From the NCBI GenBank assembly GCA_028288405.1, contig JAQBNS010000034.1, positions 27,221 through 91,220 of the forward strand: DNA of 64,000 bases, read 5' to 3'. The notes beneath the pieces are model-generated. The model saw only the letters and a program-made list of their open reading frames with translations, did not search any database and was not told the DNA's origin. Made by a program: the position numbers and the translations under genes. This DNA comes from Chitinophagaceae bacterium (lineage in GTDB: Bacteria > Bacteroidota > Bacteroidia > Cytophagales > Cytophagaceae). Shown in pieces: positions 13,241 through 60,110 of this stretch; within the stretch, counting starts at the first letter, position 1, and each line of letters begins with the position of its first letter.

Positions 13241-13963
13241 TTACCTGTTCTCCGAAATAAAATGCTCTAACGCATTTAACGTAATCTGCTCTTCCAACAA
13301 AGCCTTCGCAAACACCGCTCCCTTTAATCCTGCGTCTTGTAACTTTTTAATATCGTCTAATGATTTGATACCCGTGGCAGCAATAAAGTTGATCTCCGGA
13401 TATTGCTCTATCAATGGTTCATAGCGCGTAATCGCTTTATCTACAGACCAGCCGTGCATCGCGCATTTGATGGTTTTTACCCCTTGCTCAGAAAAATAGT
13501 CGACCACCTGTTCCAGTTCTGTTTCCGCAATTTGTCCGTGTTGACGGTACAATACTTTGCCTTCAATAATATCCAGACTCAAGACAATTTTTGCCGGAGT
13601 AAAGGTCACCATCCAGGAACTAAAAATCTCCTGATTAAACTCCATCACAGAAGCAGCCAGTATGCGGTCTGCGCCATGTTCAAAAGCCAGACGCAGATCC
13701 GCTTCTTTTTGTATGCCTCCTCCGAAATCTACTTTAAGAGAAGTGAAACCTGAAATTTTTTCCAATGCATCCGTATCCACTACTTTACGTAGCTCCAGTC
13801 CTTCCACATCCGTCAGCACGATGCGTTGAATGCCTGCATCCTCCAGTTTCATGGCCCAATCCAGGGGATCATGATTGTAAAGCACCAGGTCATTGGGATT
13901 GTATCCATTGATGCGCACTACTTTTTTATACTTTACCGAAATAGCAGGGATGAGCTCTATCAT
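13241..13963 (-). CDS. HisA-like (beta/alpha)8-barrel protein, divergent (His_biosynth fold), last gene of the trp operon
   Basis: Aligns by eye to HisA (IPAI.., DVEG, GGGI, SLDI, ATGI.. phosphate-binding loops). It is 12 nt downstream of trpA. The N-terminal catalytic Asp position reads Ser (IPAISV). Confidence 0.7.
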   Translation of the reverse strand: MIELIPAISVKYKKVVRINGYNPNDLVLYNHDPLDWAMKLEDAGIQRIVLTDVEGLELRKVVDTDALEKISGFTSLKVDFGGGIQKEADLRLAFEHGADRILAASVMEFNQEIFSSWMVTFTPAKIVLSLDIIEGKVLYRQHGQIAETELEQVVDYFSEQGVKTIKCAMHGWSVDKAITRYEPLIEQYPEINFIAATGIKSLDDIKKLQDAGLKGAVFAKALLEEQITLNALEHFISENR

Positions 13964-13975
13964 GGCTTTAGGGTT

Positions 13976-14770
13976 TTATCCTTGTTTCACAAAAGATACA
14001 AATTCTTTGATGTCTTTTTCCAACAAATGGCTATTTCCTAGCATTTTTATAAAGGCACTACCGATAATAGCGCCGTTGGCATATTTACAAGCTTCAGTAT
14101 ACGATGCATGATCTTTGATGTTGAAACCGATCATCGTAGGATTGTTGAATTTTGCTTTTTTGATGCGTTCGAAATATTCTTTTTGCCCATCCAGATCTTT
14201 CGCTTCATTCCCCGTCGTGCTGGCTGTAGAGACTACGTAAATAAAGCCGGAAGAAGCCTCATCAATGTATTTCAAACGTTCTGTAGATGTTTGTGGCGTC
14301 ACCAAAAACACCATCGATAAATTATTCGCTTCAAATAGTTCCTGGTATTTTTCTTTGTATTCGTCTATTGGCAAATCAGGCAAGATCATTCCATCCACAC
14401 CCAGTTCGCCCAAATCTGCTGCCAGTTTTTCTACACCATATTGTAAGGCCGAATTGATATACCCCATCAACAACACAGGAATGTGAATTTCATCACGCAT
14501 ACCGTGCAACTGCTGAATGATTTTCTTCAACGTGATGCCATTCTGTAATGCCGCATCATTGCTTTCCTGTATCGTAGGTCCATCTGCCAGAGGATCAGAA
14601 AATGGAATCCCGATCTCCACCATGTCCGCTCCCCCGTCCTGCAAGGCTTTCAGGATGGTACGTGTGTCTTCCAATTGAGGATATCCAGCGGTGAAGTAAA
14701 TGTTCAACAGCCCTTCCTTCTTTGTCGCAAAAAGCTGCGTCAGTTTGTTGTTAATATTAGTGCTTGTCAT
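13976..14770 (-). CDS. trpA: tryptophan synthase alpha chain
   Basis: Typical TrpA sequence (YFTAGYP, EIGIPFSDPLADGPTIQ, GFGI-like region) in trp operon context. Confidence 0.95.
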   Translation of the reverse strand: MTSTNINNKLTQLFATKKEGLLNIYFTAGYPQLEDTRTILKALQDGGADMVEIGIPFSDPLADGPTIQESNDAALQNGITLKKIIQQLHGMRDEIHIPVLLMGYINSALQYGVEKLAADLGELGVDGMILPDLPIDEYKEKYQELFEANNLSMVFLVTPQTSTERLKYIDEASSGFIYVVSTASTTGNEAKDLDGQKEYFERIKKAKFNNPTMIGFNIKDHASYTEACKYANGAIIGSAFIKMLGNSHLLEKDIKEFVSFVKQG

Positions 14771-14807
14771 GGGTTCAAATTTAATTTCTTTACTTCTTTA
14801 TATTATT

Positions 14808-14866
14808 AGGGACGAGCCAGGAGCTAGGAGGGACGACTAATTGTTCGTACCTCCTAGCTCGTCCCT
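14808..14866. repeat. R1 palindromic repeat inside the trpB-trpA spacer
   Basis: Arm GGGACGA-GCCAGGA-GCTAGGA-GGGACG (14808-14835) and partly complementary arm cgtacctcctagctcgtccct (14846-14866). Confidence 0.8.
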
Positions 14867-14871
14867 CTTAA

Positions 14872-16122
14872 CTATTTAGTGAATTCATCTTTACGTGTGA
14901 TGTACGTCATCATGTCTTTATCTCCTCTGCCTGACAAATTAATGACCACCACATCGTCCTTCTTAATCGGCAGATTTTCCAACACAGCAACTGCATGTGC
15001 TGACTCTAAGGCAGGAATAATGCCTTCTGTGCGACTCAACAACATTGCGGCATTGAAAGCTTCACCATCCGTGATGCTATAAAATTTCGCACGACCGGTT
15101 TCAAATAAGTTCGCATGCATTGGTCCAATACCCGGATAATCCAATCCTGCTGAGATGGAATAAGGTTCTGTAATTTGTCCATCTTCGGTTTGCATCAATA
15201 AAGTCCTGGAGCCATGGATAACACCCGGTTTTCCAAGAAAAGTAGTGGCCGCCGAATGTCCTGAATACACCCCTTGTCCCGCAGCTTCTACGGCGATCAG
15301 ATTAACACTTGCTTCATTCAGATAATGATAAAATGCCCCAGCCGCATTACTTCCTCCTCCTACACAAGCGATCACATAATCCGGATTGGGAGAGCCGGTC
15401 TTATCAATCAGTTGATCCTTGATCTCCTCGGAAATAATGGATTGAAAACGTGCCACCAGATCTGGATATGGATGTGGCCCTACAACAGAACCGATGATGT
15501 AATGAGTATCAACAGGATTATTGATCCAATCGCGGATTGCTTCGTTCGTCGCATCTTTCAATGTCTTACTTCCTGAATTAGCAGGACGAACAGTTGCTCC
15601 TAGCATTTTCATACGCTCGACATTGGGTTTTTGACGTTCCATGTCGATCGCTCCCATGTATACAACACACTCCATACCCATCAAGGCACAAACTGTAGCC
15701 GTAGCTACTCCATGCTGACCGGCACCTGTTTCCGCGATGATGCGCGTTTTGCCTAAACGGCGCGCCAATAAAATTTGTCCAATAGTATTGTTGATCTTGT
15801 GTGCACCGGTATGACACAAATCTTCTCGTTTCAGGTAAATGGTACTCTTATATTTTTCTGACAAACGTTTAGCCAAATATAAAGGTGTTGGACGGCCCAC
15901 ATAGTCGCGCAGCAAGTCCTCCATTTCAGCCTTGAAACCTTCTTCCTGTATAATATCCAGGTAACGGTTTCTCAATTCTTCTACATTAGGAACTAACATT
16001 TCAGGGATATATGCACCACCGAAATTTCCGTAAAATCCTTTTTTGTCTACTTGGTAATTCATATACAGGTATGCTCCTTGACCCAACAGGTCTTTTTTTT
16101 CTTCGTGAATACTCATAGCCAT
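14872..16122 (-). CDS. trpB: tryptophan synthase beta chain
   Basis: [18 protein letters not shown] and GGGSNA motifs. ATG at 16122 overlaps the trpF stop by 1 nt (TAATG). An alternative start MNYQVDKKG at 16062 is also plausible. Confidence 0.95.
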
Positions 16123-16763
16123 TAACTCGTTAGTTTTTCTTTAAATTCTTTTACCTTTTCAATATCCTTTAAGCCCGGACTTATTTCGAAGCGACTGTTG
16201 ACATCGATGGCCCAGAGTGGCTTGTCTAATACAAATTCCGGAATGGGTAATTGTTCGATACCGATTCCTCCGCTTAAGAAAAATGGTTTGCTGGAAGGAT
16301 AGTCTTTCAATAAATTCCAGTCAAACAGCCGGCCCGTTCCTCCCCATGAAGCGTCTGCGGTATCGAAAAGAAAATAATCGCAGACTTCTTCGTAACGCTC
16401 CAATACTTTCCATCCTATTGCAGAGCCTACATGCACTACTTTGATCACCTGCAAACCGAAGGTTTTCAGTTCGGCGCATAACTCAGGCGATTCTTCGCCA
16501 TGTAATTGTACTGCTTTTAAATCATAATGCTGTGTGATTTTCTTGATCTCTTGTACACTTTCATTGACAAAGACACCCGTCTTCATGATGCTCGCCGGTA
16601 ATGATGCCAAAACTTTTGCATCCAGCATCTCACCTGCGTAACGCTTGGAAGGACCATAGAATATAAACCCCATGTAATCGGGCAAAAGCTTCGCCAGCTC
16701 GAGAATGTTTTCACTCTCGCGCATGCCGCAGACTTTTAGCTTTATTTCTCTATTATTTTTCAT
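16122..16763 (-). CDS. trpF: phosphoribosylanthranilate isomerase
   Basis: LKVCGM..., QLHG.E and FLSGGI motifs in operon context. Confidence 0.9.
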
Positions 16764-16776
16764 TCTGTCTTTCTGA

Positions 16777-16952
16777 CCCCTAATCCCCTAAAGGGGACTT
16801 AGGTTATTATTTATTTTTTTTACTACAGAGATTGTGTCCCTACCGGGACACCTACATTATCCGCCCTATGTTCCACTCATCGCAGAGCGATGTAATGTCT
16901 ATAACATTCATCTTTACTCTATTTTTTAAGTCCCCTTTAGGGGATTTAGGGG
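16777..16952. mobile_element. R2 MITE-like element (terminal inverted repeats CCCCTAA(A)TCCCCTAAAGGGGACTT) in the trpC-trpF spacer
   Basis: Inverted repeats at 16777-16800 and 16928-16952. AT-rich interior with small hairpins (gtgtccctaccgggacac). No ORF. Confidence 0.6.
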
Positions 16953-16962
16953 CGAAGGAGTT

Positions 16963-17757
16963 TTACTTCAAAGCTTCGTAACGTTTCACAAACTCCGCCA
17001 TCGCTTTCCCTGGATCTTGTTCTTTCATGAAACGCTCTCCCATCAGAAAGCCCTTGAATCCTGCCTTACCGAGGGTGATCAAATCTTCCGGAGCATCTAA
17101 ACCGCTTTCTGAAATTTTGATGTAACGGTTCGGTATTAATTCTGCCAACTCTAATGAATTATTAATGCTGACTTCAAATGTTTTCAAATTACGGTTGTTG
17201 ACTCCAATCACATCCACTTCATCGATCAGGTTGCTTAACAATTCTTCTTTATTATGAACTTCCAACAAAACTTCAAGATCCAATGAGTGCGCAAACTTTG
17301 CCAATCGTTGCACTTCCTCAGGCGTCAGGCAAGCAGCAATCAATAAGATAATATTCGCTCCCCAGGCTTTGGCTTCCAAAATCTGATACTCATCAATCAT
17401 GAAATCTTTGCGTAACAAAGGAATGTTCACCGCTTGGCGTGCCGCTTTCAAATCTTCTTCCGCTCCAAAAAAGAAATCCTTGTCCGTCAATACCGAACAA
17501 GCAGATGCGCCGGCCAGTTCGTAACCTTTCGTCACGATCTCTGGCTTTACTTTATCATTGATGATTCCTTTAGAAGGAGATCCCTTTTTAAATTCAGCAA
17601 TGATGCCTGTTTTATTCAGAGCCGTCAAATGCTGCTTCAGCGAAAGATTGGCCAATCCCGGATGGATCAATTTCTCCAATTGAGCAGTGCTCACTTTCGT
17701 TTTGGCTTCCGCGACTTCTATTTTTTTGCGGTCAATGATTTTATCGAGTACGCTCAT
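16963..17757 (-). CDS. trpC: indole-3-glycerol phosphate synthase
   Basis: IAEFKKGSPSKG, LRKDF and GVNNRNL motifs. Confidence 0.95.
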   Translation of the reverse strand: MSVLDKIIDRKKIEVAEAKTKVSTAQLEKLIHPGLANLSLKQHLTALNKTGIIAEFKKGSPSKGIINDKVKPEIVTKGYELAGASACSVLTDKDFFFGAEEDLKAARQAVNIPLLRKDFMIDEYQILEAKAWGANIILLIAACLTPEEVQRLAKFAHSLDLEVLLEVHNKEELLSNLIDEVDVIGVNNRNLKTFEVSINNSLELAELIPNRYIKISESGLDAPEDLITLGKAGFKGFLMGERFMKEQDPGKAMAEFVKRYEALK

Positions 17758-17759
17758 GA

Positions 17760-18755
17760 TTATGCGTTGTTGTCCATTAATATTTTGAAAGCTTCGTAGG
17801 CTTTACCTGATTGTATCGATTCGCGGGCAATTTCTACGGCATCCAACATGCTTGTTCCCGGTTTGGCGCACACGATAGCCGCGGCGGCATTGGCCAGCGT
17901 GACGTCGTTTTGTGCTTTCGTTCCCTTATTTTGTATGATGTTCAAGAAAATGTGTGCGCTTTCTTCCACGTTGCTACCACTCTTGATTTCATCGTGTACA
18001 AACGTATTCATACCTAAATCCTGCGGTGTATAAATATGTTCTCCCCGATTCGTAATCAGTTTGAACGGCGCTGTCAATGAAATTTCATCGTAGGTATCCA
18101 ATGAATGGGCGATGCAATATCTTTTATCTGTTTCCGCATAAATATAACCGTACAAACGAGCCAACTCCAGACTGAATACACCCACCATCTGTTTTTTCAC
18201 AAAAGCCGGATTAATCATCGGTCCCAGCATGTTGAAGAATGTTTTTACACCAAGTTCCCTGCGAATCGGAGCCACATTTTTCATGGCCGGATGAAACAAT
18301 GGGGCATGCAGGATACAGACTTTTGACCGCTCGATTTGTTTCTTCAGTACATCGATGTCATTGGTAAACTTATAACCCAGAAATTCCATGACATTCGAAG
18401 AGCCTACCGGAGAAGACACGCCATAATTGCCATGCTTGGCCACATATATACCGGCACCCGCAGCTACAAAAGAAACGGTAGTGGAAATATTGAACGTGCT
18501 TTTTCCATCGCCACCTGTTCCGCACAAATCCATCGGATCAAATTCTGCCACCGGCACAGGAATACACAATTCCAGCATCGCATCACGGAAACCTGCCATT
18601 TCATTTACCGTTACACTGCGCATCATGAAAACGGTCATGAATGCTGTCGTTTGAGAAGGATTGATTTCTCCTCTCGCTATGCGGAGCATGGCTGTCTTCG
18701 CATCTGCTCTGCTCAGTGTTTTATGTTCGATCAGTTGTTGTAAAACCTCTTTCAT
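17760..18755 (-). CDS. trpD: anthranilate phosphoribosyltransferase
   Basis: CGTGGDG..TFNIST and KHGN motifs. Confidence 0.95.
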   Translation of the reverse strand: MKEVLQQLIEHKTLSRADAKTAMLRIARGEINPSQTTAFMTVFMMRSVTVNEMAGFRDAMLELCIPVPVAEFDPMDLCGTGGDGKSTFNISTTVSFVAAGAGIYVAKHGNYGVSSPVGSSNVMEFLGYKFTNDIDVLKKQIERSKVCILHAPLFHPAMKNVAPIRRELGVKTFFNMLGPMINPAFVKKQMVGVFSLELARLYGYIYAETDKRYCIAHSLDTYDEISLTAPFKLITNRGEHIYTPQDLGMNTFVHDEIKSGSNVEESAHIFLNIIQNKGTKAQNDVTLANAAAAIVCAKPGTSMLDAVEIARESIQSGKAYEAFKILMDNNA

Positions 18756-18758
18756 GGC

Positions 18759-19349
18759 TTAATGCTTTAACCAGTTTAAGACCATTTGTTCTCCGTGTTC
18801 TGTCAAAATAGATTCCGGATGAAACTGAACGCCTCTTACATCATATGTTTTATGGCGCAAAGCCATGATCTGATTTTTTTCATCCACCGCAGTAATTTCC
18901 AGATCCGATGGAAAATCTTTGTTAGCCACTGCCCAAGAATGGTAGCGCCCGGCTTTGAACGTCGCAGGCAATCCTTCGAAGGTAAGATCAGAGGGGACCG
19001 TCACTTTAATATCTGTGGCGATACCATGGTATACTTTATCCAAATTGATCAGCGTACCACCGAACACTTCACCGATGGCTTGCAGGCCCAGGCATACACC
19101 GAAAATACTTTTTGTCGGCGCATAGGTACGGATCACTTCATGCAGGATGCCTGCTTCCGAAGGAATACCAGGACCAGGTGACAATAAAATTTTATCGTAA
19201 GCGGCAATGTCAGCCAATGGAATTTGGTCGTTGCGGTATACTTCCAGGTTTTTGTAACCCAATCCTTTTATATAATGTACCAGATTGTAGGTAAAAGAAT
19301 CGTAGTTGTCGAAAACCAATATCTTTGTTTTTGCTTTATCTGTGCTCAT
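18759..19349 (-). CDS. trpG: anthranilate synthase component II (glutamine amidotransferase)
   Basis: Class-I GATase motifs GVCLGLQ and FHPES. Confidence 0.9.
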   Translation of the reverse strand: MSTDKAKTKILVFDNYDSFTYNLVHYIKGLGYKNLEVYRNDQIPLADIAAYDKILLSPGPGIPSEAGILHEVIRTYAPTKSIFGVCLGLQAIGEVFGGTLINLDKVYHGIATDIKVTVPSDLTFEGLPATFKAGRYHSWAVANKDFPSDLEITAVDEKNQIMALRHKTYDVRGVQFHPESILTEHGEQMVLNWLKH

Positions 19350-19362
19350 GATTTTGGATCGA

Positions 19363-20775
19363 TTAAATGGTAACAGCCTTTTCGATGGCTTTTTTTACAG
19401 CAGCCAATTTGTTGTGCACTTCCTGCAATTCGCTTTCTCTGACAGAAAGATCCACTACACCCGCACCGGCCTGATAATATAATTGATTGTATTTGCTTAA
19501 AATGGATCGGATCATGATGGCGTGATTGAATTCACCATTGAAACCGATGTATCCGATGGCTCCGCCGTAAAATCCACGGTTGCCTTTTTCATACTGATCA
19601 ATCAGCTGCATAGCTCTGTGTTTCGGAGCGCCGCTCAAAGTCCCTGCAGGGAACGTATCAGCTACTACTTGTATATAGTCTTCCGGATGTTCCAAAATGC
19701 CTTTTACCTTTGACACCAAATGAATCACGTGTGAATAGTACTGTACTTCTTTGAATGTTTCCACTTTTACCTGTTCACCGTGGCGGCTTAAATCATTTCT
19801 CGCCAGATCCACCAACATCACGTGTTCGGAATTTTCTTTGGGATCGTTCAGTAATTCTTTCGCCAGGTCATAATCTTTCACATCGTCACCTGTTCTGCGG
19901 AAAGTACCGGCAATCGGGAAAATGAATGCGGCATCGTCTTTAATCACGATCTGTGCTTCCGGTGAAGAACCGAAAATGCGGAAACTGCCGTAATCGAAAT
20001 AGAATAAATAAGGAGAAGGATTAATAGAACGTAAACTTCTGTACACATTGAAGTCGTCTCCGGCATAGCCGCGCTGAAATCTTCTGGACAAAACAATTTG
20101 GAAGACATCTCCTCTGCGGCAATGTTGTTTGCCTTTATCGATGATGGCCAGATACTCTTCGTCCGTTAGATTGGAGGTTTCTTCTGTAGTTAAAGAGAAA
20201 TGAAACTCAGGAACATTCTGATTTTGTACCAGTGTTTTTATTTTTTCGATCTGAGAAGGACCGGACAATTGATTCTCCAATTGATTTTCAACAATCGTCA
20301 ATTCGTTGTTAAAATGATTGAAGACTAATAAATAGCGGTAAAACAGATAATACACTTCCGGAATTTTGCGGTCGTCGTTTTCAAATGTGGATATCTCCAC
20401 CTGTTCAAAATAACGCACCGTATCATAAGACATGTAGCCAAACAATCCGGAAGTAATGAAAGGAGACGAAGCCTTTGTGGTATCAAAACTCCCAATGAAA
20501 TCAGAAAGAGCTTCCGTCACGGTCTCGCGACTGGCTGTTTGTGTATGTGGTTTTTGTCCGGGTAAAACGGTTTCGATGATTCCGTTTTCTACTTTAAAAG
20601 AAGCCAAGGGTTCGCAACCTATATAAGAATAGATGTCTTGCGTGCCGTGGTAATCCGAACTTTCCAGCAGACAACTGTAGGGGAAGTGGTCTCTCAGTTT
20701 AAGGTATACCGATACCGGTGTCAGCATATCGGCCAATAGTGATTGAGTGGTAGTGTTTATCTTTATCTTTTTCAT
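19363..20775 (-). CDS. trpE: anthranilate synthase component I
   Basis: LLESS near the N-terminus. C-terminal chorismate-binding motifs (GTLSGAPK, RGFYGGAIGY). Confidence 0.95.
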   Translation of the reverse strand: MKKIKINTTTQSLLADMLTPVSVYLKLRDHFPYSCLLESSDYHGTQDIYSYIGCEPLASFKVENGIIETVLPGQKPHTQTASRETVTEALSDFIGSFDTTKASSPFITSGLFGYMSYDTVRYFEQVEISTFENDDRKIPEVYYLFYRYLLVFNHFNNELTIVENQLENQLSGPSQIEKIKTLVQNQNVPEFHFSLTTEETSNLTDEEYLAIIDKGKQHCRRGDVFQIVLSRRFQRGYAGDDFNVYRSLRSINPSPYLFYFDYGSFRIFGSSPEAQIVIKDDAAFIFPIAGTFRRTGDDVKDYDLAKELLNDPKENSEHVMLVDLARNDLSRHGEQVKVETFKEVQYYSHVIHLVSKVKGILEHPEDYIQVVADTFPAGTLSGAPKHRAMQLIDQYEKGNRGFYGGAIGYIGFNGEFNHAIMIRSILSKYNQLYYQAGAGVVDLSVRESELQEVHNKLAAVKKAIEKAVTI

Positions 20776-20796
20776 GTGATCGAATTCCTTTTAAAT

Positions 20797-20831
20797 AAGT
20801 AAGGCTTGCTGTGGATCAGCAAGCCTTACTT
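20797..20831 (-). terminator. putative trp attenuator hairpin (15 bp stem, 5 nt loop)
   Basis: On the minus strand AAGUAAGGCUUGCUG-AUCCA-CAGCAAGCCUUACUU is followed by AUUUAAAA. It lies between the WWW leader ORF and the trpE ATG. The U-tract is weak. Confidence 0.5.
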
Positions 20832-20879
20832 TTATATCTTAATGTATACAAATAGAGGTCGTGTGTCCACCAACTGGAT

Positions 20880-20921
20880 TTATGATTCCCACCACCAATA
20901 TTTGTTTACGTTGTTTGTCAT
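20880..20921 (-). CDS. trpL: trp operon leader peptide MTNNVNKYWWWES
   Basis: Hand translation of the minus strand: ATG ACA AAC AAC GTA AAC AAA TAT TGG TGG TGG GAA TCA TAA. Three consecutive Trp codons, 104 nt upstream of the trpE start. Confidence 0.65.
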   Translation of the reverse strand: MTNNVNKYWWWES

Positions 20922-20938
20922 GTGCTTTATTATTTTTT

Positions 20939-20946
20939 CAAAAATA
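20939..20946 (-). promoter_or_regulatory. Bacteroidota -7 promoter motif TATTTTTG for the trp leader
   Basis: The minus strand reads TATTTTTG (TAnnTTTG), 17 nt upstream of the leader ATG. Confidence 0.4.
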
Positions 20947-21022
20947 AGCATTATTTGACCATACATACAACAGCCTGACCGAAAATTTTGCTTTAGAGCA
21001 TGGAGTGCGCTGCTTATTCCGC

Positions 21023-21030
21023 TATCTTTG
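21023..21030 (+). promoter_or_regulatory. Bacteroidota -7 promoter motif TATCTTTG for lysA
   Basis: Exact TAnnTTTG match, 25 nt upstream of ATG 21056. Confidence 0.4.
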
Positions 21031-21055
21031 CACAAATTATTCTTTATTACGCATC

Positions 21056-22309
21056 ATGGAATTAACAAACGGCAGTTACGGCATCCAGAGCATAGCACTG
21101 ACTACTCTGGCAGAAAAGTATCAAACTCCTTTATATGTATATGACGGAGAAAAAATCGTGAATCAATACAAACGACTTAAAAATGCGTTTGATGGTACGC
21201 GTGTAAAGATAAAGTACGCCGCAAAAGCTTTGACCAATCAATCGATACTGACTTTGCTTCAGAAAGCAGGATCAGGAGTAGATGTTGTTTCTATAAATGA
21301 ATTACAACTGGCGCTTCGTGCAGGATTTGCTCCGGCTGATATTATGTTTACTCCCAATTGTGTTGATTTTTCTGAAATAGAAGAAGCCATCACGTTGAAT
21401 GTACATATCAACATCGACAATCTTCCCTTCCTGAAAAAGTTTGGAGAGCAGTATGGATCTTCTGTACCGGTATGCATACGCATTAACCCACACATCGATG
21501 CGGGAGGAAATGAGAAGATCATGACCGGACATCGTGAGTCAAAATTTGGCATTTCGATCGAACAAGAGCAAAATATACTGGACATCGTGGCTCAATACAA
21601 GCTCAACGTCGAAGGTATCCATGTACACAGTGGTTCTGATTTCAAATCAGCAGATGCGTTCGTGAGTGCAGCTGAAATCATGTTCAAGGTGGCGAAAGAT
21701 TATCCTTCACTCTCTTTCATCGACTTTGGAAGTGGATTTAAAGTCGCCTACAAAGAAGGAGATCATGCCACAGACATCGAAGAGCTCGGAAAGAAGATGA
21801 GCAGTGCCTTTAAAGCCTTCTGCGCTGCTTATGGAAGGGAATTAGAGCTTTGGTTTGAGCCCGGAAAGTTCTTAGTAAGCGAATCAGGATTGCTTTTGAC
21901 AACCTGTACAGTGATTAAAGAGACTCCCGCCTGTACTTTCATCGGAGTAAACTCCGGATTGAACCATTTGATCCGTCCGATGATGTACGGAGCATACCAT
22001 TCGATCTTTAATGTGAGCAATCCGACCGGAAAACAGAAAAAATATAACGTTGTAGGATACATTTGCGAAACCGACACCTTCGGGAAAGCCCTAGACATCA
22101 GCGAAGCCAAAGAAGGCGATATTATCGCGCTAAAAAATGCCGGCGCTTATGGATTCAGTATGAGCTCGAATTATAACAGTCGTTTTCGCCCCGCGGAGGT
22201 TTTAATCTTGAATGGAAAAGACTTTTTGATCAGGAAAAGAGAAGTTTTTGACGACCTTTTGAAAAATCAGGTAGAAATTTTTTCAGCCGAGACCAGTTTG
22301 CAAGTTTAG
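21056..22309 (+). CDS. lysA: diaminopimelate decarboxylase
   Basis: Start MELTNGSY...TPLYVYD. Orn/DAP/Arg decarboxylase motifs (KYAAKA PLP-lysine region, GSGF, CETDT). Confidence 0.9.
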   Translation: MELTNGSYGIQSIALTTLAEKYQTPLYVYDGEKIVNQYKRLKNAFDGTRVKIKYAAKALTNQSILTLLQKAGSGVDVVSINELQLALRAGFAPADIMFTPNCVDFSEIEEAITLNVHINIDNLPFLKKFGEQYGSSVPVCIRINPHIDAGGNEKIMTGHRESKFGISIEQEQNILDIVAQYKLNVEGIHVHSGSDFKSADAFVSAAEIMFKVAKDYPSLSFIDFGSGFKVAYKEGDHATDIEELGKKMSSAFKAFCAAYGRELELWFEPGKFLVSESGLLLTTCTVIKETPACTFIGVNSGLNHLIRPMMYGAYHSIFNVSNPTGKQKKYNVVGYICETDTFGKALDISEAKEGDIIALKNAGAYGFSMSSNYNSRFRPAEVLILNGKDFLIRKREVFDDLLKNQVEIFSAETSLQV

Positions 22310-22337
22310 GCCCTAAAAAAACCAACTTTATACACAG

Positions 22338-22386
22338 CCTTCTGTAGCCATTGATTTTACTGGTACTACAGAAGGTTTGTTTTTTA
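22338..22386 (+). terminator. intrinsic terminator downstream of lysA
   Basis: Stem ccttctgtag / ctacagaagg followed by TTTGTTTTTT. Confidence 0.6.
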
Positions 22387-22556
22387 GATGAAGAGCTATA
22401 ACCCGTTTAAATCTCATTCTCCCGAAAAAAAAATGGGTGTAGATAATTTTTTGCATAAAGAGTTGTTTGGAAGTTTAAAATAATTTACATATTATTGAAA
22501 TAGATTTAGTCAAGTATTTTTTAACTAATTATTTAATTACAAAAAAGGAGGAGACC

Positions 22557-22850
22557 ATGGCAAAAGCTAAAACTTCTAAGAAATCTGCAGCTAAGAAACC
22601 TGCTGCAAAGAAAAAAGTAGCTGCTAAGAAAAAAGTAGCGAAAAAAGCAACTAAGAAAGTAGCTAAGAAAGCTGCTAAGAAAGTAGCTAAAAAAGCAACT
22701 AAAAAAGTAGCTAAAAAAGCTGCTAAGAAAGTAGCTAAAAAAGCAACTAAAAAAGTAGCTAAGAAAGCTGCTAAGAAAGCTGCTCCAAAGAAAAAAGCTG
22801 CTAAGAAAAAAGCTGCTAAAAAAGTAGCTAGTAGCGCACCACAAGCATAA
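22557..22850 (+). CDS. histone H1-like Lys/Ala-rich repetitive DNA-binding protein
   Basis: 97 aa composed almost entirely of A/K/V/T repeats (AKKATKKVAKKAAKKV x3). Strong SD AAGGAGGAG 22545-22553. Strong terminator follows. Confidence 0.8.
   Translation: MAKAKTSKKSAAKKPAAKKKVAAKKKVAKKATKKVAKKAAKKVAKKATKKVAKKAAKKVAKKATKKVAKKAAKKAAPKKKAAKKKAAKKVASSAPQA
22638..22781 (+). repeat. 48 bp x3 in-frame tandem repeat inside the histone-like gene
   Basis: Units 22638-22685, 22686-22733 and 22734-22781 differ only at synonymous aag/aaa positions and the last codon. Confidence 0.85.
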
Positions 22851-22872
22851 CATCTTTGTGATGTAAAGCTTT

Positions 22873-22903
22873 AAAACACGGACTTCGGTCCGTGTTTTTT
22901 TTT
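22873..22903 (+). terminator. intrinsic terminator
   Basis: acacggac-ttcg-gtccgtgt followed by a run of 9 T. Confidence 0.9.
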
Positions 22904-22926
22904 GCCCCATAGACATAGACATAGAC

Positions 22927-22954
22927 AGGAACGAGCCAGGAGGGACGAGGGACG
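22927..22954. repeat. R1 repeat arm (GGAACGA-GCCAGGA-GGGACGA-GGGACG)
   Basis: Same heptamer modules as the other R1 copies. The partner arm lies about 400 bp away at 23335-23361. Confidence 0.7.
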
Positions 22955-23036
22955 CATAGATTAAAGGGCTCCAACGCTGCTAAGAGCTGTTCATAAGTCA
23001 TTAGTTTTGTCGGGAATACTTCTCCTCTATACTTTT

Positions 23037-23291
23037 CACTAGCTGTCTTGCCCCTAAATCACCTAAAGGGACTTGTCAGTCATGAGTATGTAGCAAGAGC
23101 AACAATTCATTTCTTGCTGTCTAACCCCTAAATCACCTAAAGGGGACCTGATGTTGATGAGTAGGGAGAAAGAGAACCCTTTATAAAGAAGGAGAAACAG
23201 AAAGAGAAAGAGGGGTGAGTGACAGTATTTTTCTTTCTGTTTCTCTTTCTTTAAAGCTCCCTTCAAGGAATTAGGGGCAAGACAGCTAGTG
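23037..23291. mobile_element. R2 MITE-like element (degenerate copy)
   Basis: Ends cactagctgtcttgcccctaa... / ...ttaggggcaagacagctagtg are inverted repeats (first 22 nt perfect). Internal second R2 unit at 23116-23147. The segment gggacttgtcagtcatgagtatgtagcaagagcaaca matches the reverse complement of 60048-60084 with 2 mismatches. Confidence 0.6.
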
Positions 23292-50660: not shown

Positions 50661-51080
50661 ATGATTAATATTTCATTACGGGTTTGTTTACAATTGGTTT
50701 TTATTCTCTTTTCTCTGATCTGTTTCAACCATCAAGCTTTCAGTCAAGTAAAACCTAACACTGTCAATGGCATATGGGCAGACTCCAATAGTGCAGCCTT
50801 CACAAATGGTTATGCGATATTCTCGGTAGACGAACACGGAAAGTTGGCTATGACTCATTATGTTGAATTCAATGGGGTTGCGATGGTAGAAAAAGGAATT
50901 GGATTCTGTTCTCACGGCACCTTGAATTATGACGCCATCGTTACCCAAGGAATACCGGGCTGGTCACTTAAAGGACAGCATGTTTTGACTTTATCGGAAG
51001 ACGGGAATACCTTGCGAGGCTACTACAAAGATGAAAAAGGCAATACAGGACCGTTGGTTTTCAAACGCTTACGCCCATAA
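50661..51080 (+). CDS. hypothetical secreted protein
   Basis: Signal peptide ending AFSQ. No domain recognised. Confidence 0.5.
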   Translation: MINISLRVCLQLVFILFSLICFNHQAFSQVKPNTVNGIWADSNSAAFTNGYAIFSVDEHGKLAMTHYVEFNGVAMVEKGIGFCSHGTLNYDAIVTQGIPGWSLKGQHVLTLSEDGNTLRGYYKDEKGNTGPLVFKRLRP

Positions 51081-51764
51081 ACAAACCATTACTACCACAA
51101 CATGATGATGATTTGTCTTTACAAGACATTTGCTATTCCAATGAGATAAAAGAAAAGCCTTCCGTCCAGCATCTATTCATGCGGAGCGGGAGGCTTTATA
51201 TGTTTTGCTTTGAAAATGCTTAAGCGATGCTTGCGGCAAAAATCAGCACAGACAAGAAAATACTAATGAGTGCACTGACAAGATTCAATTTTTTTTTCAC
51301 GTTGGATAAATTAAGCTGTAAAATTTTGGTTTCGCTCTGCCCCTTCGTTGCCTTTTTCACTTGGAAAGGCCTGCTATACAAGGAGTAGTACTTTGATAAT
51401 ACTCAGATTTAATTTGATTATCCTAAGACTTACCACTACTACAAAAAATAATCTTATTCTTACAAAAAAGTTGGTTTAATAACCCATTCGAGGTTTTTGA
51501 GGGATAAATAGAGAGAGATAAAGGCGTGCAATATTATTCTTTATTGAAAAAAACAAACGATGTGTGTAAGAATTGTTTTTTTTTCTTGTATTACTTTATG
51601 AAAAGCATAAACGATGCTTGAAACCCAGTAGGCGTTGTGCGAACAGAGAGAACAATAAAGCTTGATTGATCATATCAGTTTTTGAATGGAATAGGGGGTT
51701 ATTTGAATTTCATTGGTATTGAAATTGTCCTTGTCTTTAAAAAAATCGTACATTATCGGGTATT

Positions 51765-59880: not shown

Positions 59881-60110
59881 CTGTCTGGCCCCTAAATCCC
59901 CTAAAGGGGACTTTAGTTTGTAGTAAAATAAAGAAGCTCATTGCATACTATATGCGAAGAGCTTTTTTGTTTAGTAAAAGGGAAAGTCCCCTTTAGGGGA
60001 TTTAGGGGTTAGACAGCAAGAGCAACAGCATACAGCAAGAAAAGAGTTGTTGCTCTTGCTACATACTCATTACTGTCAAGTCCCCTTTAGGGGATTTAGG
60101 GGCCAGACAG
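59881..60110. mobile_element. R2 MITE-like element with perfect 31 bp terminal inverted repeats
   Basis: ctgtctggcccctaaatcccctaaaggggac at 59881-59911 is the exact reverse complement of 60080-60110. Third internal unit at 59986-60016. Internal 13 bp hairpin agcaagagcaaca / tgttgctcttgct. No ORF. Confidence 0.7.

Follow-up and report, generated by a model that had tools for sequence, protein, structure and literature searches.

In Escherichia coli, according to the Yanofsky model, the trp operon is preceded by the trpL leader, in which a leader open reading frame (ORF) with tandem tryptophan (Trp) codons, three pairings among its RNA segments (1:2, 2:3, and 3:4), and a terminator stand before the structural genes. 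Such attenuators have reportedly also been predicted in Bacteroidetes/Chlorobi, by Vitreschak and colleagues in 2004. Here we analyze the leader upstream of trpE in a 64-kb stretch of DNA from a Cytophagaceae-like bacterium (contig JAQBNS010000034.1; this whole stretch is the window, and its own numbering is used throughout), for which a sequence-only reading had proposed leader-peptide attenuation of a trp operon. That proposal is supported by a match to the family RF01692, by leader ORFs in relatives, and by an anti-terminator, and we conclude that the leader is a member of the Bacteroid-trp family and most likely a ribosome-mediated transcription attenuator of trpEGDCFBA.

The closest described system is the Bacteroid-trp family itself, RF01692 in Rfam, whose source is Weinberg et al. 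2010 (Genome Biol 11:R31; PMC2864571), where it was presented as a presumed Trp-sensing peptide leader upstream of trpB or trpE in Bacteroidetes. No consensus diagram was drawn there for Bacteroid-trp, since it was regarded as "a loosely conserved hairpin," and no anti-terminator was given. The seed of the family already holds Cytophaga hutchinsonii (NC_008255), Flavobacterium, and Bacteroides. A further described system is the trpL of Sinorhizobium meliloti, located before trpE(G), where Trp attenuation depends on the ribosome and yields a short terminated leader RNA as well as a peptide of ~14 amino acids.

We scanned positions 19000–23000 against all 4227 Rfam families, and the whole window was also scanned at gathering scores. 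RF01692 ("Bacteroidete tryptophan peptide leader RNA") matches over its full length at 53.0 bits, compared with a gathering score of 49 (E = 9.6e-5 in the 4-kb search and 0.0015 for the whole window), and this is the only gathering-score match to any Rfam family in the window. In addition to the score, the locus shares with the family the tandem UGG codons in a short ORF, the position in the 5′ region of a trpE operon, a P1-type hairpin joining the Trp-codon region to downstream sequence, a GGCUUG-type terminator 5′ arm at the 3′ end of the model, and a host in the Bacteroidota. Nothing essential differs: the peptide tail after the three Trp codons is 2 codons long in the window versus ~7 in Flavobacterium, the stop codon lies 6 nt ahead of the anti-terminator strand and not inside it, the U-tract is interrupted, and the terminator stem is unusually long. 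The element itself is already known, as a catalogued Bacteroid-trp member.

The proteobacterial family RF00513 (Trp_leader) gave no match at E ≤ 10 in the 4-kb scan of the 4227 families, and, judging from its sequence, the element appears to be functionally like E. coli trpL but not a member of RF00513. What the two leaders share is a logic of four segments, with the stop codon placed so that a terminating ribosome would cover segment 2. There is no detectable homology of sequence or structure between them, the window leader has three Trp codons where E. coli trpL has two, it has a Bacteroidetes-type promoter and an initiation that does not depend on Shine-Dalgarno pairing, and its predicted anti-terminator also takes up the terminator loop and, beyond it, the first bases of the 3′ arm. 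The leader likewise has no sequence similarity to S. meliloti trpL, which belongs to another phylum and whose products rnTrpL and peTrpL are known to act in trans.

The leader ORF and its conservation

The 13-codon ORF that had been translated by hand from ATG 20921 on the (−) strand, with three TGG codons followed by GAA TCA TAA, is exactly as described: it runs from ATG (20921–20919) through ACA AAC AAC GTA AAC AAA TAT TGG TGG TGG GAA TCA to a TAA stop at 20882–20880, located 104 nt upstream of trpE, and encodes MTNNVNKYWWWES. The TAnnTTTG motif had been placed 17 nt upstream of this ATG, and exactly 17 nt are counted between the G of the motif and the ATG. From what is generally known of Bacteroidetes promoters, transcription would start ~5–7 nt downstream of the motif (~20933), which would leave the leader ORF a 5′ untranslated region of ~12 nt. 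Among the non-redundant relatives described below, 31 of 43 have TAnnTTTG within 45 nt upstream of the leader ATG versus 2% expected, and this conservation supports the promoter assignment. The spacing between motif and leader ATG in relatives is bimodal (4–9 nt or 14–20 nt; e.g., loci L009, L010, L031, and L008), so that translation of the leader ORF in the short-spacing class would use an mRNA that is leaderless or nearly so; the start codons of some of these ORFs may be mis-assigned. In the window, in-frame ATGs at 20966 and 20951 (−) could lengthen the leader ORF to 28 or 23 codons. Both sit either inside the promoter motif or farther upstream, the first of them is lost in the related contig L081 (ATC), and leader peptides of relatives begin 5–13 codons, typically ~8, before the Trp run, a distance that favors ATG 20921 as the start. 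The upstream ATGs are probably not used.

The Trp run TGGTGGTGG is found once in the 64 kb with both strands counted, and at least one copy occurs somewhere in 21 of 100 shuffled windows, so the run by itself is not decisive. In a non-redundant alignment of 44 leaders, Trp codons 2 and 3 form the one block before the terminator that is invariant or nearly so, and Trp codon 1 is substituted in a few relatives that have WW only.

The relatives come from a search of the window TrpE against one genome per species, which gave 80 Cytophagales and Flavobacteriales loci from which we took the 450 nt upstream of trpE. The top relative is L001, a Cytophagaceae metagenome-assembled genome (MAG) whose TrpE is 95% identical in amino acids, followed by Cytophaga aurantiaca at 65% and by Roseivirga, Cyclobacteriaceae, Fibrella, Rufibacter, and many Flavobacterium at 57–62%, which places the window in a Cytophagaceae-like member of the Bacteroidota and not in Bacteroides. 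The sequence-only reading had suggested an alignment of trpE upstream regions as a check, and the outcome favors it: ~70 of the 80 loci have, at most 450 nt upstream of trpE, a short ORF that encodes WW or WWW, with peptides such as MTGTKQWWWYVN (C. aurantiaca), MNFQLHNIWWWQIS, MRNNALHTAWWWHVTELR (Roseivirga), and MKTILNNTWWWNNLRQSS (Flavobacterium), and the homologous terminator shows compensatory changes at 9 of 10 pairs in the 44-sequence alignment. A strong hairpin follows the WW ORF in all of the ~70 loci except L022, with a U-tract in nearly all of them. In most loci the hairpin has the consensus AAAAGGCUUGyyr-loop-yrrCAAGCCUUUU, and its distance to trpE ranges from 11 to 188 nt. A minority has no WW short ORF in the 450 nt (L012, L021, L023, L027, L028, L029; several Flavobacteriales/Bacteroidia MAGs); in these, trpE is either not in first position or differently regulated.

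A metagenome scan with a 30-mer common to the window and L001 led to two further contigs, L081 and L082. The leader core (20909–20797) is 100% identical to the window in L082 and ~97% in L081, compared with 87.5% and 84%, respectively, for the first 600 nt of trpE, and thus constraint is stronger on the leader than on the coding DNA next to it. These contigs do vary in the N-terminal codons of the leader and in the 21 nt before trpE.

When 18 relatives were scanned with RF01692, 5 reached the gathering score, and all 18 have the WW(W) ORF and the terminator. The Bacteroid-trp model thus misses most Cytophagales cases (Roseivirga, Cyclobacteriaceae, Fibrella, Rufibacter), and the element is commoner than the database suggests. 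The under-detected loci are L002, L004, L009, L016, L019, L025, L026, L031, L032, L038, L053, L061, and L069. One of these, Rufibacter latericius (L032:2190–2500), and also L036 carry tandem Trp leader units upstream of trpE (MNKTQFTHNAWWHTRQN and MKKVKESGMICWWHQSEDS), each unit with its own GUGAAC-type element and its own terminator, an arrangement that looks like a double attenuator.

The probable terminator, P1, and the predicted anti-terminator

The perfect 15-bp hairpin that had been noted at 20797–20831 holds up on folding. It consists of AAGUAAGGCUUGCUG, the loop AUCCA, and CAGCAAGCCUUACUU, with 15 perfect pairs and a folding energy of −23.8 kcal/mol, and its stem is a G+C-rich core (GGCUUGCUG/CAGCAAGCC) lengthened by AAGUAA/UUACUU. 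The tail after the hairpin is AUUUAAAAGG, and the 21 nt reported between the hairpin and the trpE start are also what we count to ATG 20775. The fold of the full 181-nt leader has an energy of −48.9 kcal/mol, with z = −6.1 versus dinucleotide shuffles. Upstream of the terminator, the hairpin P1 pairs GUAAACAAAUAUUGGUGGUGG, which covers codons 5–11 of the leader ORF including WWW, with ACACGACCUCUAUUUGUAUAC. P1 folds at −18.5 kcal/mol, the arm-to-arm duplex has an energy of −19.3 kcal/mol (z = −3.0, with none of 200 shuffles as good), and the hairpin agrees with the Rfam structure line, several positions being non-canonical.

The sequence-only reading could not convincingly identify an alternative anti-terminator pairing, and here it did not hold, since ribosome-masked folds reveal one between 20874–20845 and 20836–20808. 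In these folds, the nascent transcript began at ~20935 and was cut at the terminator loop or in the middle of the 3′ arm, and ~29 nt under the ribosome were forced to be unpaired for a given A-site codon. The 3′ strand of the pairing (region 3) runs from the end of the spacer through the terminator 5′ arm in full and the loop to the first 4 nt (CAGC) of the terminator 3′ arm. Free RNA without a ribosome folds into P1, plus the terminator when the RNA is full-length. A ribosome masked at the first, second, or third UGG codon prevents P1, and the 2:3 pairing forms instead, at −15.4 kcal/mol in context (−13.9 kcal/mol alone). With the mask at the UAA stop codon, the G+C-rich top of the 2:3 helix (GUUG, UGGA) is blocked and nucleation occurs in the upper stem of the terminator. 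In the window, 16 nt belong both to the P1 3′ arm and to the anti-terminator 5′ strand, and 98% of loci show an overlap of 4 nt or more, so that the 1:2, 2:3, and 3:4 structures are mutually exclusive in the classical sense. A fold of the leader in search of such structures had been proposed earlier, and it finds that 2:3 excludes both the terminator and P1. A 5-bp GUGGA/UCCAC contact was considered as the entire anti-terminator and was rejected, as the masked folds give an imperfect helix of ~26 pairs that contains it.

In relatives, a recurring motif (c)GUGAAC(a) at or just past the leader stop complements the terminator loop and its flanks, (u)GUUCAC(g), and the columns of region 3 in the window are homologous to this GUGAAC/GUUCAC pairing. 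A second short stretch in relatives (AGCU or similar) pairs with GGCUU of the terminator 5′ arm. Where the loop varies, the motif varies to match: GGGAG/CUCCC in Cyclobacterium (L053), GGAUGA/UCAUCC in Fibrella and its relatives (L038), and GUGGA/UCCAC in the window. We measured the complementarity of segment 2 to the terminator 5′ arm plus the loop plus 4 nt at 70 loci, with 200 dinucleotide shuffles of segment 2 per locus, and obtained a mean z of −3.3, with 90% of loci at p ≤ 0.05. In a 44 × 44 cross-test, segment 2 pairs with its own terminator at −15.3 kcal/mol and with foreign terminators at −10.9 kcal/mol, and none of 10,000 permutations was as low (p < 1e-4). In the alignment of the 44 leaders, made with MAFFT, 62% of the anti-terminator cells are paired versus 32–44% when the partners are slid by 1–3 columns.

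The position of the anti-terminator 5′ strand is tied to the stop codon. In most lineages it starts at −5 to +2 relative to the leader stop, with a UGA stop frequently inside GUCGUGAAC; the Cytophagaceae group, to which the window, C. aurantiaca, L004, and L019 belong, has it at +7 to +9, as does Cyclobacterium (L053 and L064). Thus, a terminating ribosome would cover the strand and one stalled at the Trp codons would leave it free, and a placement tied to the stop is explicable only if a ribosome reads the ORF.

We observed or computed the sequence elements and how far they are conserved, together with the alternative pairings and the statistics on them, and to these we add a transcription start, ribosome footprints, transcription-translation coupling, and a Trp dependence that we infer, as follows. 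Transcription would start just past TAttTTTG, and ribosomes would translate the 13-codon leader ORF while the RNA is still emerging, with three exclusive pairings available to that RNA, namely 1:2 (20909–20844), 2:3 (20874–20845/20836–20808), and 3:4 (20831–20797). When charged tRNA-Trp is scarce, the ribosome would stall on UGG UGG UGG, covering segment 1 and stopping short of segment 2, and the free segment 2 would pair with the nascent terminator 5′ arm and loop, so that no terminator forms and RNA polymerase enters trpE. When tryptophan is plentiful, the ribosome would reach the UAA codon two codons on, where the G+C-rich beginning of segment 2 (GUUGGUGGA) would lie under its footprint; once the ribosome is released, segment 1 would recapture segment 2. 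Either way, through the footprint or through 1:2, the 15-bp terminator would form and transcription would stop ~21 nt before trpE. The features of the locus are collected in Table 1.

Table 1. Features of the trp leader and operon in the window, with the evidence for each
Feature	Position	Strand	Evidence
Promoter motif TAttTTTG, Bacteroidetes-type −7	20939–20946	(−)	Direct sequence reading
Match to Rfam RF01692 (Bacteroid-trp)	20818–20944	(−)	53.0 bits, model 1–131 of 131
Leader ORF MTNNVNKYWWWES plus TAA stop, trpL-like	20880–20921	(−)	Sequence reading; homologues in relatives
Hairpin P1, regions 1:2, Rfam consensus hairpin, proposed anti-antiterminator	20844–20909	(−)	Fold, duplex test, Rfam structure line
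Three consecutive Trp codons UGG UGG UGG, proposed stalling site	20889–20897	(−)	Conservation, uniqueness
Region 2, predicted anti-terminator 5′ strand GUUGGUGGACACACGACCUCUAUUUGUAUA	20845–20874	(−)	Masked folds, duplex test, overlap count
Region 3, predicted anti-terminator 3′ strand	20808–20836	(−)	Masked folds; alignment columns
Terminator (attenuator) hairpin, regions 3:4, 15 bp	20797–20831	(−)	Folding, sequence reading
Interrupted U-rich tract, UUACUU followed by AUUUAAAAGG	20787–20802	(−)	U count versus relatives
Operon trpE-trpG-trpD-trpC-trpF-trpB-trpA	13976–20775	(−)	Pfam

Attenuation weighed against other explanations

Several observations count against attenuation, and the first group concerns the pairings. 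The window anti-terminator is marginal taken alone (−13.8 kcal/mol versus a shuffled mean of −9.5 kcal/mol, z = −1.66, p = 0.05), and among 44 possible partners for the window's segment 2, its own terminator comes only 11th (−11.4 versus −9.9 ± 2.0 kcal/mol). The case for an anti-terminator rests on the family. Alignment-based covariation of the anti-terminator is modest there, with 37 of 500 shuffles reaching its covariation score. This signal is weak because loop and spacer lengths differ between lineages, which puts the loops out of register, and we therefore relied on the alignment-free duplex tests. P1 is loosely conserved across the family (mean z of −1.4, with 39% of loci at p ≤ 0.05). 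RNAalifold on the 44-leader alignment recovered the terminator alone, and P1 is also out of register between lineages there. Every full-length fold favors the terminator (−23.8 kcal/mol) over the anti-terminator (−13.9 kcal/mol), which is expected where an anti-terminator acts kinetically; with the terminator always the more stable, the attenuation model depends on kinetics.

The closest genome representative, L001, also counts against attenuation, in that it is without the leader ORF. In L001 (2384–2386), 3 nt replace the 218 bp at 20889–21106 of the window, so that the two promoters are missing along with the 5′ end of the divergently oriented decarboxylase gene and the leader ORF as far as its Trp codons. 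This is a deletion or an assembly fault in the MAG and not an ancestral absence. Absence of the mini-ORF from close relatives had been named in advance as a finding that would speak against attenuation, and the ORF is kept in the two closely related contigs, as MTNSVNKYWWWES in L082 and MKNRVNKYWWWES in L081.

The remaining points against attenuation concern termination and the literature. The U-tract is interrupted (CCUUACUUAUUUAAAA) and is poorer in just one of the 44 relatives. The sequence-only reading had called it poor, and we count 5 U in the 10 nt past the last G-C pair, compared with a median of 8 in those relatives. A consensus terminator scan called no terminator on the (−) strand here. 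The searchable literature yielded predictions only and no experimental demonstration of Trp attenuation in Bacteroidota, which agrees with the earlier remark that the mechanism is predicted but little studied in Bacteroidetes; the nearest literature statement is of "strong clues," from a transcriptome study of Flavobacterium psychrophilum. As for the U-tract, when counted from the 9-bp G+C-rich core the next bases are UUACUUAUUU, with 7 U of 10, and the tract of C. aurantiaca (L035) is similarly interrupted (CCUCAUUUGUUUU), so the defect looks like a lineage trait. The weak U-tract is offset by the unusually long stem, at −23.8 kcal/mol versus ~−17 kcal/mol in typical relatives. As a candidate intrinsic terminator, the window element combines a strong hairpin with an interrupted U-tract (5 of 10), and its counterpart in relatives is canonical.

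The same poor U-tract, the terminator scan, and the long and stable stem could be read as signs of inefficient termination and of a post-transcriptional role, in which the hairpin is an element of mRNA processing or stability, or in which translation of the leader modulates that of trpE by hand-over or re-initiation. For the latter, the distance from leader ORF to gene is preferentially short in Bacteroidetes, which has been read as re-initiation (PMC4833913). We consider such a role unlikely. The leader stop codon, at 104 nt from trpE, is too distant for simple re-initiation. The terminators of relatives are canonical, with 8–9 U of 10, and stand at distances from trpE as different as 11 and 188 nt, which together point to termination as the conserved function. 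A post-transcriptional role also gives the conserved anti-terminator complementarity nothing to do. Occlusion of the trpE start by the hairpin was rejected, as the hairpin lies 21 nt from the ATG, leaving the start open, and at variable distances in relatives.

Another possibility, which we regard as quite improbable, is a second function: the ~140-nt leader RNA or the 13-amino acid peptide might act in trans, in the manner of rnTrpL and peTrpL from Sinorhizobium, or termination in this Cytophagaceae lineage might be non-canonical and factor-assisted. The first idea stems from the identity of the leader core, at 97–100% versus 84–88% for trpE, and the second from the degenerate U-tract together with the weak anti-terminator.

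Other phyla control trp genes by TRAP or T-box elements, and alternative structures by themselves do not prove that a ribosome is the sensor. Here too the switch might be set by a trans-acting factor (a TRAP-like RNA-binding protein, a small molecule, or, in the manner of a T-box, uncharged tRNA-Trp), with the WWW ORF incidental or auxiliary. This is very unlikely, since T-box, TRAP-site, and riboswitch families gave no match at E ≤ 10 in the 4-kb Rfam scan and the leader sequence has no arrays of (G/U)AG repeats. The in-frame tandem Trp codons are the most conserved feature across the ~70 loci and always lie in a short ORF running from start to stop, and the tie between the stop codon and the anti-terminator strand makes sense only for a ribosome that reads the ORF. 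Finally, a chance short ORF beside an ordinary hairpin with no regulatory role, for which one could cite the shuffled windows that contain TGGTGGTGG, is scarcely credible and is effectively refuted by the comparative data, given an RF01692 match above the gathering score, a fold z of −6.1, the same arrangement of ORF and hairpin at the same place in ~70 loci of several families, and a leader more identical (97–100%) than the neighboring coding DNA (84–88%).

The operon, its surroundings, and significance

The seven genes of the operon were assigned by their Pfam matches, which are Chorismate_bind/Anth_synt_I_N, GATase, Glycos_transf_3, IGPS, PRAI, PALP, and Trp_syntA, and trpE is a 470-amino acid ORF starting at ATG 20775 (−). 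The gene on the other side of the leader encodes a divergent decarboxylase of the Orn/DAP type on the (+) strand; since this neighbor is divergent, we ruled out that the hairpin is the terminator of another gene. The decarboxylase ORF (21005–22309) is listed from GTG 21005, and ATG 21056 is the more probable start. A TATCTTTG promoter motif lies at 21023–21030 (+), ~25 nt upstream of ATG 21056, so the 134-bp intergenic region appears to carry two back-to-back Bacteroidetes-type promoters. At the other end of the operon, a His_biosynth-family gene (HisA/HisF-like, 240 amino acids; 13241–13963, (−) strand) follows 12 nt after trpA and may be co-transcribed with the trp operon.

A dispersed repeat, AAGTCCCCTTTAGGGGATT, has 6 copies in the window, where none is expected (16777–16951, in the trpC–trpF spacer; 23131–23149; 59895–59913; 59984–60002; and 60078–60096). 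Two of the copies form 25-nt inverted arms around 125 nt in the ~200-bp trpC–trpF gap, and this element in the trp operon looks REP- or MITE-like. A scan of the window for other leader-peptide attenuators, i.e., short ORFs with amino acid runs, found nothing convincing; an ORF ending in TITTTT (51031–51105) was dropped as a candidate, as it overlaps the end of a longer ORF.

For annotation, the consequence is routine: the region would be labeled as a Bacteroid-trp leader, with a trpL-like ORF and an attenuator controlling trpEGDCFBA. An explicit and testable 1:2/2:3/3:4 model is an incremental advance on the published "loosely conserved hairpin." In this model, the anti-terminator strand contains the leader stop or begins just after it, and its partner is the loop of the terminator together with the upper stem. 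That RF01692 passes only 5 of the 18 scanned relatives is a second incremental addition. Leader-peptide attenuation implies that transcription and translation are coupled, here in a phylum that initiates translation without Shine-Dalgarno pairing, and the searchable literature yielded no direct experimental test of such coupling. The window element or a Flavobacterium homologue would be a convenient test case for it.

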